A program made the translations under genes and the position numbers. The notes under the pieces were generated by a model. It was not told where the DNA came from, ran no database searches, and saw only the letters and a list, made by a program, of their open reading frames with translations. Source: Escherichia phage T5. From it: a stretch of DNA of 64,000 bases. Each line of letters starts with the position of its first letter. Position 1 is the first letter of the stretch. The stretch lies in sequence record AY692264.1; one strand, given 5' to 3'. Below are positions 8,300-58,452 of the stretch, one piece after another.

Positions 8300-8644
8300 A
8301 TGGTAATTTATGAAGGCAATCGCTTTGTTGCTATTTGCCGACCGGGATTATTAGCAAACTACTTAAATCAGGTGTCACCTGAATATAAAGGCGTCATTAA
8401 TATTTATGAGGGCAAGGCGCATTATAAGATTAATGCGGTCGTTGCCCGTGAATTAGCATTTCAATTTTTGACTTTCGCATCTTGTGATATTCAGGTCATG
8501 GGTGAAGCGTTAATTGCAGAAAATGAAGATGATTTTATTAATATCTTCCGCAAGGTATACACCGAGCGCCTGATAATGAAAGGCGCATATATTCAGTCAA
8601 CTGCGGAAAGTATTGAAACAGCTTTCAGAAAGGTGGCGCAATGA
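8300..8644 (+). CDS. hypothetical protein (start adjusted to internal ATG)
   Basis: ORF 8261-8644 in track; ATG at 8300 directly follows upstream stop. Confidence 0.4.
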   Translation: MVIYEGNRFVAICRPGLLANYLNQVSPEYKGVINIYEGKAHYKINAVVARELAFQFLTFASCDIQVMGEALIAENEDDFINIFRKVYTERLIMKGAYIQSTAESIETAFRKVAQ

Positions 8645-8953
8645 AGCTATATATTTTCGTTGGTAATGTTGAGGCTGCGAATGATTCCGCTGGTGGCGAT
8701 AACGTTCGCCACTATTGGCAAAAATATATTTACTAGGGTTATTATGATTACACTGATTTGCGTTAAAGCCGAAGGCGACACGATAGCGCGAGAAGGGCAA
8801 AAATATAAAGCCCAAAAAGATCAATTACTCAAAACAATTGAGCGTTACAAAATACCCGATCTCAAGTATTCCGTAGTAGGACGCGATGGGATTCTAAGGG
8901 CGACACTTGAGAACGCTATCTTTGAGATAGTCAACTAATAACGGGGCGTTATT

Positions 8954-9157
8954 ATGAGCAATAAAATTATTGTGACCAAAACTACCACAATGGTAGACGT
9001 TTTTTATGTGCCCGATACGCCGGAGAATCGGGGAGCGGTCGAGCGGGGCGAGTATGATAGCGTTATTTATGATGCCGATGGTTATTATCAGCATTTGGTC
9101 GATTCCTACGGGGAAGAGGAGAAGATCACGCATCGATTACCCGAGGGGGATTTATGA
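8954..9157 (+). CDS. hypothetical protein
   Basis: 67 aa ORF. Confidence 0.4.
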   Translation: MSNKIIVTKTTTMVDVFYVPDTPENRGAVERGEYDSVIYDADGYYQHLVDSYGEEEKITHRLPEGDL

Positions 9158-9272
9158 AACGATGGTTTAATCACTGGTATAAACGGTTTTTAGTACGGCA
9201 TCGCAAGTCTAGACAGCAAGATGATTGGCGGGAAATGGCAAAGCGTAACAATTGCCCACTTCTCTGATAACC

Positions 9273-9297
9273 GACGGGGATCAGCTCCCCGTTTTTC
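9273..9297 (+). terminator. rho-independent terminator
   Basis: ACGGGGA-loop-TCCCCGT hairpin followed by TTTTTC. Confidence 0.6.
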
Positions 9298-9410
9298 ACG
9301 CCTCCAGTTAAATCCCCCTTTGTTTTAGTATCCCCATCAAAATTAAACGCGTTAGAATGCGATCTAGGACGTTTTAGGCATATATTAGAATTATTCACTG
9401 CGTAGGAATA

Positions 9411-9515
9411 CTGTATAAATATACAGTAGGATAACCTGGGGATAAGTCTGTTGATAACGCTTCAAAATGGCTAGGATTTTGTCAAGGCGAATCGTGCTGT
9501 TGATAAGTCTGTGGA
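9411..9515. repeat. DnaA-box-containing repeats, right copies
   Basis: CTGTATAAATATACAG at 9411-9426; GATAAGTCTGT(T/G)GATAAC at 9441-9458 and 9493-9510; TGTGGATAA DnaA box at 9507-9515. Confidence 0.6.
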
Positions 9516-9547
9516 TAACTTAAATAACAGTGTTTCTCACTTCCGTT

Positions 9548-9730
9548 TTTAAATACGAATCATTATCATTCGTATTCCGCTTTTTAAATGAGAATCATTC
9601 CGCTTTTTAAATGAGAATCATTTCACTTCCTGAATAGTTCTCATTCCCTTTCTTAAATGAGAATCATTATCATTTGCATTTCACTTTTTAAATGAGATTG
9701 ATTCTCATTATCATTCGCATTCAGGCGAGC
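9548..9730. repeat. direct repeats of about 19 bp (TTTTTAAATGAGAATCATT), about 5 copies
   Basis: seen directly; irregular 22-43 bp spacing; no regular spacer structure. Confidence 0.6.
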
Positions 9731-9749
9731 AGGGCAATTGCCCTGCGCT

Positions 9750-10500
9750 TTTGTGCAAATCCGACATTTGCCCCCATGGATTACGCGTGGGCGTGTATGT
9801 GCAAATCCGACAATTTTTGGTAGTGTGCGAATCCGACCCGAAAAATTTTTATAGTGTGCAAATCCGACAATGAATTTTCCCAAAAACTCCAGCAATCACG
9901 AACTGCGTTCGAATCCTGTGGAATTAGCTAGAGTATGTGCAAATCCGACATGTGTTGAGATGTGCGAATCCGACAAGATTTTTGTGACTTCGATGGGAGG
10001 GTGTGTGATTGTATGGGTTTGAGGGGAAGATGAGAGAGCGAGAGAAATTTGGGAGGCTAGAAGGATATGGGCGCAGGATTGGTGCGGAGCACCTGATTTG
10101 CGGGGATTTTGGGGAAGAGTTGAGATAATTTGGGAAGATTTGAGATAGGTGCAGAAAAAGTAAAATTTTATTAGCTAAAGGGGGCAAAATAGCTTGACAA
10201 GTGAAAATTTCTGTGGTTCTAAAAACTCAGGCAATCATGGGCCTTCGGCCCGAAATAATGCTGCTATTTTCAGGAGAGTAAGAGTTCCTAAAAACTTAGG
10301 CGTTTGTGCAAATCCGACCATAAATTTCTAGAAACACAATGTGCAAATCCGACAGTAATTTCTGGAAATGTGTTTTCAAAAAATGTCTTCTAGAAATAAC
10401 CGCCCTCCCTATAACCGCCCTGTATTAAACCGCCTATTGCTGGAGTTTCTAGGAACATGAAAACTGCCCTAGAGTATGTGCAAATCCGATGAATATTTTT
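9750..10500. repeat. array of about 9 copies of 14-bp motif TGTGC(A/G)AATCCGAC, all same orientation
   Basis: copies near 9754, 9795, 9822, 9853, 9938, 9961, 10303, 10331, 10478; extra copy inside ORF at about 12151. Confidence 0.65.
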
Positions 10501-10850
10501 GTGTGATCCCTAGAATTTATACTTATCAATTTCCTAGAAACTCAGGAGTCTAGAAGAAAGTGTTGTGCCATCCTAGCAGATGAGCGGCAACAGGTGTATC
10601 ATCTTGAATGTAAATTATATGGTCAAAAGTTTTACTTTTATTTTAAATATAAGATCCCCCAGGGTTCTCATATAGAGCTTTGCCCCCGCCAGAAGGTCTC
10701 GTGATGTTTCTAGTAATTTATATTAAATTACTTATTAACTTGTCCTATCGCTCCGTATCCTCCGCTACAAGTTAGTAATTTTAAATTACTGAACCACCAC
10801 ACCTTCTGTGTGGCAACTCTAAATGGTTAATTCTATTAACTCATAGAGTT

Positions 10851-10879
10851 ATGATAACATACATTTAGCTATCTGTCAA
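10851..10879 (-). promoter_or_regulatory. sigma70 promoter (TTGACA-17-TATCAT) firing into noncoding repeat region
   Basis: minus-strand read TTGACAGATAGCTAAATGTATGTTATCAT; no ORF over 20 aa downstream for several hundred bp. Confidence 0.5.
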
Positions 10880-10935
10880 CGAAAGTTTGTATTTGAGTCT
10901 CGGTACAGGTATTGTGCACCGAGATATGCAGAGTA

Positions 10936-11820
10936 TTATAATAATTCTTGGTATGCTTTTTGATACGCCTCAGTATCTGTAGGTGTATCTTTTGCTAACG
11001 CAATTAGTTCATCTGTTATCTGAACATTCGTACTATAACGTTGGTGGAACTCTTCTGGGATTTCTAGGTATCTATTTATGAACGCTGCAGCAAGCGGTGT
11101 AACTAACCCAATTTCTAGGGATAACTTAACTTGTTTCTCATAAATTAAATACTGAGAATCAGATGGGATTGGTGGGGTTACATCAACTTTTTCTGGTTCT
11201 TTTTCTGGAAGCAATGGATTGTTATACAATGCTTCATCTGGAAGCACAGATTTACGCTCTTTAAATATATAAGTTTCTAGATCCGATGCTTTAGATCCTG
11301 AGTAAACAGCGAAGATGCTAGCTTTACCTTGTGATGCCCTAACTGGTAAATAGTTAGTTGGGTAACTCCTTAATGCATCATGGAATGGACTTCCTGAGTA
11401 TTTGTATGTATCCCCATAGAGATCATCAATATTCATTCGTTCATCTTCAAAGATATGGAAAGAGCTAAATGATGGGATGGTGAAGTATTCCATCTGTAAC
11501 CCATAAACTAAGAAACGATGTGCATATGCGCTAATCTTTAAGACTGTGAATGCTTTCTCACCTTCTTTATAAGAATTGCCCTTTGAAGTAACTTGATAAC
11601 GCTTACAAAACATCTCTACTAAACGTTTCTCATTAATATTGAGTGAGGAATATAAACGTCCATTTAGCCCTAGAAGGGCATCAAACATAAATGCTAACTT
11701 ATCTTTTTCTTCTTGAGACAGTTCTGGAAATGGTAATACTTTGGCATTAGGAACATTATTGTTCTCTTTAGGTTTTGTTTTACCAGCATTTTGTCTTAGT
11801 TTATCTTTAAAGTTATACAT
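10936..11820 (-). CDS. hypothetical protein
   Basis: 294 aa ORF. Confidence 0.55.
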   Translation of the reverse strand: MYNFKDKLRQNAGKTKPKENNNVPNAKVLPFPELSQEEKDKLAFMFDALLGLNGRLYSSLNINEKRLVEMFCKRYQVTSKGNSYKEGEKAFTVLKISAYAHRFLVYGLQMEYFTIPSFSSFHIFEDERMNIDDLYGDTYKYSGSPFHDALRSYPTNYLPVRASQGKASIFAVYSGSKASDLETYIFKERKSVLPDEALYNNPLLPEKEPEKVDVTPPIPSDSQYLIYEKQVKLSLEIGLVTPLAAAFINRYLEIPEEFHQRYSTNVQITDELIALAKDTPTDTEAYQKAYQELL

Positions 11821-11901
11821 TATTTATCTCTCATTTTTTAAGGTCTGGATGACCTTCTTTTTATTTTAGAGCCTCCGTAGAGGCTCATGTATTAGGAATT
11901 A

Positions 11902-12510
11902 TTAATCCTTTTTATTCTCATTAATAACAGCTCCTAGTGCTTCAAGGATAGTATCATTTATACTCCCAGGCCTAAGATTATTAAAGTGAGTAACATAGAT
12001 GGGACTTTTAAAACCTTCAGTATCCACAGGTGCTACGCTTTTCATGTCAGATTCAAAAGCTTCTTGAGTATGTTTCAATTGTGCAGAAGGTCCATAATCT
12101 TCACCAACTCGATATGAGGAATTATTTTCTATAACGCCACCGCATGGAACATTGTGCAAATCCGACGTTATTTTAGGACTGTTCCACATTGTAATTGGCC
12201 CCGATTGCCACGGATCTCGAATAGTCACAGGAGTACTAGGACGGTTAACCTCAGTCTTCACAAGCTTATAACCAGCATCGATTAGTGTATTAATTAGATT
12301 ATCAGCGGGAATACGAGCCTTGCCAAAAATCTTACGAGCGTTGTTGAGCCTACCTTCAAAATCTTTACATGCTTTAATATTAGTGTGTGCAAAGGTTAGC
12401 TTCATAGATTTGAACTGTACGGTAGCAGTTAAATCTTTAAAAGCATAATCCCACGTATTCAGTTCATGATCTGGTACTACTTGAATAGATTGCTGTGCAT
12501 ATAAAGTCAT
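11902..12510 (-). CDS. hypothetical protein
   Basis: 202 aa ORF; contains one copy of the 14-bp motif. Confidence 0.5.
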   Translation of the reverse strand: MTLYAQQSIQVVPDHELNTWDYAFKDLTATVQFKSMKLTFAHTNIKACKDFEGRLNNARKIFGKARIPADNLINTLIDAGYKLVKTEVNRPSTPVTIRDPWQSGPITMWNSPKITSDLHNVPCGGVIENNSSYRVGEDYGPSAQLKHTQEAFESDMKSVAPVDTEGFKSPIYVTHFNNLRPGSINDTILEALGAVINENKKD

Positions 12511-16778: not shown

Positions 16779-16807
16779 ATTATACAGAAACTTAAGCATT
16801 TTAGCAA
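16779..16807 (-). promoter_or_regulatory. T5-type early sigma70 promoter (TTGCTA-17-TATAAT)
   Basis: ATTATA 16779-16784 and TAGCAA 16802-16807 on plus strand. Confidence 0.7.
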
Positions 16808-26747: not shown

Positions 26748-26776
26748 ATTATAACAAGAAAAGAGAGGTTTAGCAA
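26748..26776 (-). promoter_or_regulatory. T5-type early promoter (TTGCTA-17-TATAAT)
   Basis: ATTATA 26748-26753, TAGCAA 26771-26776; flanks nearly identical to promoters at 28626 and 32030. Confidence 0.7.
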
Positions 26777-32754: not shown

Positions 32755-32787
32755 TTAGCTTTCCTTCTCTTCACTTTATAAGATATA

Positions 32788-32815
32788 TTATACAGAGAAT
32801 TAAGCATAATAGCAA
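32788..32815 (-). promoter_or_regulatory. T5-type early promoter (TTGCTA-16-TATAAT)
   Basis: ATTATA 32788-32793, TAGCAA 32810-32815. Confidence 0.6.
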
Positions 32816-34887: not shown

Positions 34888-34916
34888 ATTATACAGAAAA
34901 CTTAATAAATTAGCAA
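34888..34916 (-). promoter_or_regulatory. T5-type early promoter (TTGCTA-17-TATAAT)
   Basis: ATTATA 34888-34893, TAGCAA 34911-34916. Confidence 0.7.
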
Positions 34917-37806: not shown

Positions 37807-37835
37807 ATTATACGAGAATTTGAAGCGTTTAGCAA
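37807..37835 (-). promoter_or_regulatory. T5-type early promoter (TTGCTA-17-TATAAT)
   Basis: ATTATA 37807-37812, TAGCAA 37830-37835. Confidence 0.7.
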
Positions 37836-41855: not shown

Positions 41856-41957
41856 AACTAATCTCCTTAACTAATGGAGATATTATAGCAAATCAGGTAG
41901 CGATTAGCAAGTAAAATTTCAAAGAAAAAGGAGACCCGAAGATCTCCTTGTTTTTTA

Positions 41958-45486: not shown

Positions 45487-45696
45487 CTACAATTTTAAAT
45501 AAGCCTATGATATTGCATTTAAATAAAAAATTTGCTTGCTTTTAATGGGAAATGTGTGGTATTAGATAATCATTTTATACCGCGTACATAGGCGCAGGAT
45601 TATACTATTTTAAGTACAAAATAGCAAATAAATTTTTTAACAATTTGCTAACCTTTTAGCACAGATCAAAATACAACATCTAAGAGAAAAATTATA

Positions 45697-45725
45697 TTGA
45701 CATCTGCCCTTGAATAAGCTATAAT
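45697..45725 (+). promoter_or_regulatory. consensus sigma70 promoter (TTGACA-17-TATAAT) for nrdD
   Basis: exact consensus hexamers; divergent from the phoH promoter, marking the strand switch. Confidence 0.8.
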
Positions 45726-58423: not shown

Positions 58424-58452
58424 TTGCTAAATGCTTAAATACTTGCTATAAT
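58424..58452 (+). promoter_or_regulatory. T5-type promoter (TTGCTA-17-TATAAT) between the ligase halves
   Basis: TTGCTA 58424-58429, TATAAT 58447-58452. Confidence 0.75.

Follow-up and report, generated by a model that had tools for sequence, protein, structure and literature searches.

A conserved promoter and a predicted structured small RNA next to the left terminal repeat of phage T5

The non-coding stretch at the end of the left terminal repeat of phage T5 probably holds an unannotated gene for a non-coding RNA of ~200 nt, headed by a functional sigma-70 promoter, and the RNA is likely to be discrete, stable, trans-acting and recognised by its shape. Escherichia coli RNA polymerase carrying sigma-70 would initiate on the minus strand at a predicted start near 10844 and yield a ~200-nt RNA with a short 5' hairpin, a rod of ~150 nt and a 3' hairpin, most transcripts ending at a U-rich tail with a predicted end near 10640. 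When second-step DNA transfer resumes, it would be this transcription unit that enters the cytoplasm first, and its product would work in trans as a protein-binding scaffold or decoy, recognised mainly by shape and not by base-pairing. We infer transcription in vivo, the exact ends of the RNA and its function from sequence comparison.

T5 is a classic model phage, of which the early programme and the two-step injection of DNA are only partly understood. The region has hitherto been discussed purely as DNA, in terms of repeats, palindromes and DnaA boxes. Positions below refer to the window, the whole stretch of 64,000 nucleotides of T5 (AY692264.1) that was analysed; they are also those of T5 record AY543070.1, in which the 2.5 kb around the site are 100% identical and at the same positions.

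Results

An extended -10 promoter downstream of T5.018

The non-coding stretch is bounded on its left by the end of the left terminal repeat, and on its right by T5.018 (10936-11820, minus strand), the last gene of the leftward early block. The two T5 records disagree by 80 bp on where this repeat ends on its right, at 10139 in AY587007 and at 10219 in AY543070, and neither of them carries an annotated promoter or any other feature at 10220-10935. An earlier note on this DNA had claimed a consensus-like promoter, TTGACA-17-TATCAT, on the minus strand at 10879-10851, just downstream of the open reading frame at 10936-11820. The motif is present exactly there, 56 nt past the stop codon of T5.018 and pointing leftward, and it also possesses a TGn extended -10 motif, with the TG at 10859-10858 on the minus strand flagged as such by the promoter scan (Table 1). 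The same note had described the region ahead as having no ORF over 20 aa, which is slightly too strict in that a 24-aa ORF with a GTG start exists; no ORF of at least 30 aa is found on the minus strand between 10935 and 10188.

The site scores 11/12 and is the top promoter match within 8-13 kb, an interval in which weak promoter-like sites show no excess (15 observed, 15.9 in shuffles). Across the 64 kb, nine sites score at least 11/12 as against 2.5 +/- 1.4 in dinucleotide shuffles. Only two of these also have TGn, where 0.13 are expected, and the other one is the annotated T5 promoter at 13266-13238. The window contains a single perfect consensus promoter (12/12, TTGACA-17-TATAAT), located at 45697-45725 on the plus strand.

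Centred on the predicted start is a 13-bp palindrome which looks like an operator. In the second of the two RNA families described below, its sequence is AATCT-CAT-AGATT, and three positions of the arms covary. Further close copies, searched for as a regulon test, were absent from the 64-kb window. Between the stop codon of T5.018 and the promoter there is also a hairpin, TCTCGGT-N13-ACCGAGA (10890-10916, minus strand), which is invariant in T5-type phages and is not followed by a U tract; it may be the 3' end or a stabiliser of the upstream operon.

Table 1 Coordinates of promoter elements, parts of the predicted RNA and early-class promoters in the window
Feature	Position	Strand	Sequence, basis or conservation
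-35 hexamer TTGACA	10874-10879	-	6/6 consensus match; TTGACA, TTGACG or TTGCAT across 37 T5-like sequences
17-nt spacer	10857-10873	-	Ends in TGT (10859-10857), which supplies the TGn extended -10 motif
-10 hexamer TATCAT	10851-10856	-	5/6 consensus; invariant in 13/13 T5-type sequences, TATAAT in all other lineages
13-bp palindrome AACTC-TAT-GAGTT	10838-10850	-	Its midpoint is the predicted start, the A at 10844, 7 nt beyond the -10 hexamer
Whole predicted RNA, ~200 nt	10640-10844	-	Covariance model R1 matches 10644-10844 (minus strand) at 242 bits
P1, predicted 5' hairpin	10823-10844	-	Minimum-free-energy fold
P2, predicted ~150-nt imperfect rod-like hairpin	10674-10821	-	Fold z -6.8, -6.9; conserved apical loop AGCGGAGGAUACGGAGCG
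P3, predicted terminator-like 3' hairpin	10648-10672	-	UAUGAGA-A-CCC-UGG-GGG-A-UCUUAUA; fold, 7 + 3 pairs
U/A-rich tail after P3, likely 3' end region	10635-10647	-	UUUAAAAUAAAAG; read from sequence
Early-class promoters	16779-16807, 26748-26776, 32787-32815, 34888-34916, 37807-37835, 41882-41910, 45599-45627	-	
Early-class promoter	58424-58452	+	

Conservation of the promoter among relatives

Homologous regions were gathered from GenBank phages, IMG/VR and metagenomes, using the 49-bp sequence at 10560-10608 as an anchor. The promoter was kept in 37/37 distinct T5-like sequences, always on the same strand and 237-274 nt upstream of the 49-bp core. Its form in the relatives is TTGACA, TTGACG or TTGCAT, followed by 17-18 nt ending in TGT and then by TATAAT, or TATCAT in the T5-type. 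Among 12 representative variants, mean pairwise identity was 0.86 in the -35 hexamer, 0.87 in the TGn region and 0.95 in the -10 hexamer as against 0.36 in the remaining spacer, so the last 5 nt of the spacer are held (0.87 identical) while its body varies freely between lineages.

The gene upstream of the promoter is itself variable. In T5-type phages it encodes a 294-aa protein (phrog_8583), for which NCBI and UniRef give the name '33.8 kDa early protein' in the case of T5.018. Many relatives instead have an unrelated protein of ~240 aa (phrog_8993) at this position, sometimes with an HNH endonuclease gene inserted. Neither protein has a match in Pfam, PADLOC or the PDB. The promoter is retained whichever of these genes lies upstream, including where the HNH gene is inserted. 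In three distant contigs, with T5.018 homologues only 44-53% identical, the gene is likewise followed by a TGn promoter at a distance of 66-136 nt. Conservation of the hexamers and TGn, while the spacer drifts and the upstream gene changes, is the signature of a functional sigma-70 promoter, here of the extended -10 type.

A predicted small RNA downstream of the promoter

The ~200 nt past the promoter are nearly invariant in T5-type phages, with a mean column identity of 94-97% which is above that of the neighbouring end of the coding sequence. In T5 this region folds at -63.9 kcal/mol (z -6.8 relative to shuffles) into three successive elements, P1, P2 and P3, with a U/A-rich tail (Table 1). 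The earlier note had offered a non-coding RNA as one product of the promoter, and this option has gained in substance, as a conserved structured unit of ~200 nt directly follows the promoter and has a terminator-like end, the RNA itself being predicted.

In T5 the tail after P3 (UUUAAAAU) is poor in U and misses the rule of the terminator scan, and with this weak U tract read-through past P3 could be substantial in T5. The scan does call the homologous 3' hairpin a terminator in two other sequence classes (F and C), the U tract is stronger in other classes, and in phage HdH2 the 3' hairpin was annotated as a terminator by the depositors.

Short direct repeats bracket the RNA gene, in that the start-site region (10840-10848) and the 5' arm of P3 (10667-10677, minus strand) share a class-specific motif. 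The two copies are CTCTATGAG and CTCTATATGAG in T5, and TCTCATAGA and CTCTCATGA in classes B-G.

Shape is conserved across unalignable sequence classes

Across lineages, these ~200 nt fall into no fewer than eight sequence classes (A to H) that cannot be aligned with one another, and distant relatives add further variants. The predicted layout is the same in every class and is made up of a short P1, an imperfect rod P2 of 125-150 nt, a P3 bearing a run of G, and a U-rich tail. Fold z relative to shuffles lies between -3.9 and -6.9 in all eight classes. Among the distant relatives it is -6.8 in L164 and -3.4 in L167, and a less convincing -1.7 in L165. In 8/8 classes the transcribed strand exceeds its complement in stability by 4-14 kcal/mol, because its G-U pairs become A-C mismatches on the other strand. 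However, the complementary strand of T5 also forms a strong hairpin (z -6.4), hence folding alone does not separate an RNA from a palindrome at the DNA level.

Patterns of substitution give further information on this point. In 13 T5-type sequences, 98.8% of the rod cells were paired, as against 35-43% when the partners were slid, and one-sided changes alternate between G-U and Watson-Crick pairs on the sense strand. Variation within the class is small; the rod shows three compensatory pairs, all from a single lineage split, and its covariation score was reached by 0/500 shuffles. In the P1 of the second RNA family, three of seven pairs have compensatory changes, a count that 2/500 shuffles reach. 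Both of these counts use alignments that were not fitted to structure.

A covariance model (R1) built from nine T5-type RNAs scores 242 bits on the sense strand of T5 and 27 bits on the antisense strand. It also detects full-length homologues, at the expected position and strand, in L167 (E 4e-10), L164 (E 4e-8, 43 bits) and class H (E about 1e-4, 27-28 bits). A sequence-only model made from the same alignment finds L167 alone and misses L164 and class H at E up to 10, hence the signal in these two is structural. When the divergent RNAs are aligned by fitting to the model, 91% of cells pair and 54/69 pairs are doubly changed, against 9-17 when slid, a count that is inflated and of limited weight because the alignment was fitted to the model and the rod is lost when these RNAs are aligned with MAFFT on sequence alone.

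Classes B-G were not detected by the T5-type covariance model; this group is a second sequence family with the same predicted layout. The RNA family tracks the family of the upstream gene, phrog_8583 occurring with A, H, L164 and L167, and phrog_8993 with B, C, F and G. The association could be no more than linkage, or it could point to a pairing of protein and RNA.

The 49-bp core and the repeat arrays

Further to the left lies the 49-bp core (GTGTTGTGCCATCCTAGCAGATGAGCGGCAACAGGTGTATCATCTTGAA, plus strand, 10560-10608), whose conservation, about 94% or more across 422 phage records, far exceeds that of the flanking genes. It has no conserved reading frame, and in class H it contains a +1 indel. 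We considered the core as part of the RNA and rejected this, as no fold is conserved in it (alifold -0.3), and we treat it as a separate element acting at the DNA level. It is probably a protein-binding site in the DNA near the terminal-repeat boundary.

The array of 14-bp motifs at 9749-10498 corresponds to direct repeat D in the published annotation of T5 (TGTGCAAATCCGAC). All nine copies are on one strand; by the bounds of AY587007, six of them fall within the terminal repeat and three beyond it. The nearest copy (TGTGCAAATCCGA, about 10477-10490) is ~355 nt downstream of the predicted start. The earlier note had the promoter transcribing into these repeats; it does point toward them, but the 3' hairpin and U-rich tail are predicted to end the unit ~160 nt before the first copy.

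Other repeats occur in the same region. Palindromic motifs resembling CTAGAAAC are interspersed among the 14-bp copies, and (A/G)GGCGGTT(A/T) is present as three copies with 15-nt spacing at 10397-10435 on the minus strand, the sole matches in the 64 kb. These GGGCGGTTA repeats are seen again past the RNA in L164 and L167, two of the distant relatives. A mirror-image module was looked for at the right terminal-repeat junction and is absent there.

Prevalence and database searches

A concatenate of the eight classes matched 438 phage records by blastn, and the neighbouring gene T5.019 is found in 439. All 438 are T5-like phages of Salmonella, Escherichia, Shigella, Klebsiella and Citrobacter, in which the interval is usually unannotated. 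Salmonella phage BD13 (L015 2514-2705, BD13_187) and several other GenBank records have a 'hypothetical protein' called across the RNA and the core. A small-protein gene was rejected as an explanation of the interval, since no frame is conserved between lineages and the ORFs of the different classes differ in frame, start and length; for the same reason the CDS calls over the RNA are probably spurious.

Scans at E up to 1 against the families of Rfam 15, 6S RNA and phi29 pRNA included, turned up nothing relevant in T5 8500-12500 or in five loci carrying other RNA classes. Mimicry of a host or prophage RNA was rejected after a blastn search of the eight classes against 5,426 E. coli genomes returned zero matches, and an antisense target was rejected as complementarity to the rest of the 64-kb window is at chance level only. 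Short public contigs ending near the RNA were considered as a trace of transcript ends; they end in or just after the core and we read them as assembly breaks.

The literature that we searched made no mention of promoter, RNA, start-site or expression data for this locus, and an older mention is possible. Davison's analysis handles the region as untranslated repeats, and the words promoter and transcript are absent from it (Davison, bioRxiv 10.1101/866236).

Discussion

Alternative explanations

A chance or vestigial promoter-like sequence without function, with downstream conservation of unrelated cause, might be expected in a genome as AT-rich as that of T5, where weak matches in 8-13 kb are no commoner than in shuffles. 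However, a site of this quality with TGn is expected only 0.13 times per window, its hexamers and TGn are kept in 37/37 sequences while the spacer drifts, and it is retained beside unrelated upstream genes and in distant relatives, and we consider the absence of function highly improbable. The promoter could also be secondary to a palindrome that acts as DNA, either as a cruciform or as a protein-binding inverted repeat, for example in concatemer processing. Strong folding is indeed seen on both strands (z -6.8 and -6.4), the left terminal repeat ends on its right at 0.3-0.7 kb from the element in every relative checked, and T7 uses an inverted repeat near its concatemer junction. A DNA palindrome is nevertheless quite improbable here, given that the transcribed strand is the more stable in 8/8 classes via G-U pairs, that in the T5-type a change on one side exchanges G-U for Watson-Crick pairing, or the reverse, on the sense strand, and that the covariance model prefers sense to antisense (242 and 27 bits); it would also leave the selectively conserved hexamers and the U-rich tail unexplained. 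The earlier note had further named transcription-coupled DNA entry as a possibility; in this reading, transcription from the promoter pulls the phage DNA into the cell, as in T7. Apart from the location near the injection stop region nothing favours this, and the geometry contradicts it. The left end of T5 enters first, with a shear point near 9.6 kb (Davison, bioRxiv 10.1101/866236), and the promoter, at 10.87 kb, is located rightward of the injection stop signal annotated at 9140-10149, so that the RNA unit would be outside the cytoplasm during the pause and the first in afterwards. A polymerase leaving this promoter would move toward the left end, that is, toward DNA already inside, and from this orientation and position it could not reel in the remaining DNA as from T7 promoters. 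Second-step transfer, moreover, depends on the pre-early proteins A1 and A2 (Davison, bioRxiv 10.1101/866236), and we give DNA entry an almost negligible probability.

Transcription could instead be the point in itself and act in cis, with a leaky or regulated P3 and with the structured RNA as a leader or attenuator. Leftward read-through over the AT-rich stretch, the 49-bp core, GGGCGGTTA, CTAGAAAC, the 14-bp repeats and the terminal-repeat end would in one form activate or clear a DNA site, such as a replication origin, a site of packaging or terminal-repeat processing, or the proteins bound at the injection stop; in another form it would enter the rightward pre-early operon (T5.011-017) in antisense orientation and aid its shut-off. 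The weak U tract after P3 in T5 is in line with such read-through, as are the ~40 nt of AT-rich DNA and the 49-bp core (422 phage records) directly downstream, with the repeat arrays next, and the convergence of the promoter on the rightward pre-early genes. Promoters beside origin or packaging sites are also known from T7 (phi1.1A/B, phiOR) and T4 (oriF/oriG). Nonetheless, a hairpin and U-rich tail are present in every class and strong in some, with a 14-bp stem and then UUUUUCUUU, and a plain leader would need no 150-nt rod under structural selection in more than eight classes. No same-strand gene lies downstream, the replication origins of T5 are reported to be centrally placed in its genome (Davison, bioRxiv 10.1101/866236), and a role in cis is in our view distinctly unlikely.

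The trans-acting RNA recognised by its shape, which we prefer, is suggested by a shape that was kept while the sequence was replaced many times, and by the lack of a convincing antisense target. What such an RNA might do can be narrowed only tentatively. It may be a fast-evolving, shape-conserved decoy or cofactor made on second-step entry, serving either anti-defence, by titrating a host immune sensor or nuclease, or the processing of the terminal-repeat boundary as an RNA cofactor with a loose resemblance to phi29 pRNA, a proposal to which we attach a modest chance. The anti-defence form would explain the unrelated sequence classes, at least ten in number, found between conserved ends in a variable accessory-gene spot.

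Comparison with known systems

In layout, the closest known system is the PR'/6S RNA/tR' unit of phage lambda, which produces a short constitutive transcript of about 194 nt. Both combine a strong constitutive sigma-70 promoter with a non-coding transcript of ~200 nt; the lambda transcript stops at an intrinsic terminator, and the one predicted in T5 has a terminator-like end. They differ in that the lambda short RNA is a by-product and the Q protein permits read-through into late genes on the same strand, whereas in T5 no minus-strand ORF of at least 30 aa follows (10935-10188), the next annotated genes leftward are on the opposite strand, and no Q-like factor has been identified. A further difference is the long rod predicted for the T5 RNA, which is under structural selection; nothing of this kind is known for lambda 6S.

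In evolutionary behaviour and in its location close to a genome end, the predicted RNA is closest to the pRNA of phi29, a structured RNA of about 170-200 nt encoded next to the genome end and transcribed endward from a strong promoter of the host polymerase. Secondary structure is conserved amid near-complete sequence divergence in both cases. The T5 RNA, however, has no match to the pRNA of Rfam and no link to packaging, for which T5 uses a conventional terminase. Bacterial 6S RNA, a mostly double-stranded rod of about 180-200 nt, is similar to the predicted RNA in size and rod shape. The likeness has relevance in that T5 uses the host sigma-70 polymerase throughout infection (Klimuk 2020, PMC7472727). 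The T5 RNA differs from 6S RNA in having no Rfam 6S match and no large central bubble mimicking an open promoter in its predicted folds.

The promoter shares near-consensus hexamers, and probably also recognition by the host sigma-70 holoenzyme, with PH207 and PN25, which are given as the canonical T5 early promoters (Gentz and Bujard 1985, as cited in PMC7472727), and an ATATT discriminator is present in all known T5 early promoters (Klimuk 2020, PMC7472727). Promoters of the early class in the window (Table 1) consist of an A-tract, TTGCTA, 17 nt, TATAAT and then mostly ATATTT...ATAAATTGATGAGG. The one at 37807-37835 is presumably PH207. The present site, in contrast, has TTGACA, TGn, the discriminator AACTCT and no A-tract, and is on these grounds of a different type from the canonical early class.

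There is also a likeness to phiOR and the concatemer junction of T7, and to the origin transcripts of T7 and T4, as in each case a promoter in unique DNA lies near the boundary of a terminal repeat and faces that repeat, and the DNA ahead of it is AT-rich. Compared with phiOR, the geometry in T5 is mirrored and a conserved predicted terminator stands between promoter and repeat; as for the origin transcripts, no origin or packaging function has been mapped at the T5 site. We would file the T5 unit as a new RNA family of the promoter-to-terminator kind of phage small RNA.

Implications for T5 and its relatives

Our results suggest that the right-hand part of a region viewed as repeats and palindromes holds a promoter-driven, structurally constrained small RNA, as yet predicted, which would add a new gene to a textbook genome. 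The predicted RNA is found in essentially all Markadamsvirinae genomes in our collection and is new both to Rfam and to the GenBank annotations of T5. As part of the first unit to enter after the injection pause, it is a candidate for a role in early host takeover, in anti-defence or in the handling of the terminal repeat. If it does act as a decoy or as a terminal-repeat cofactor, it would be the first functional RNA other than tRNAs to be assigned to the T5 group.
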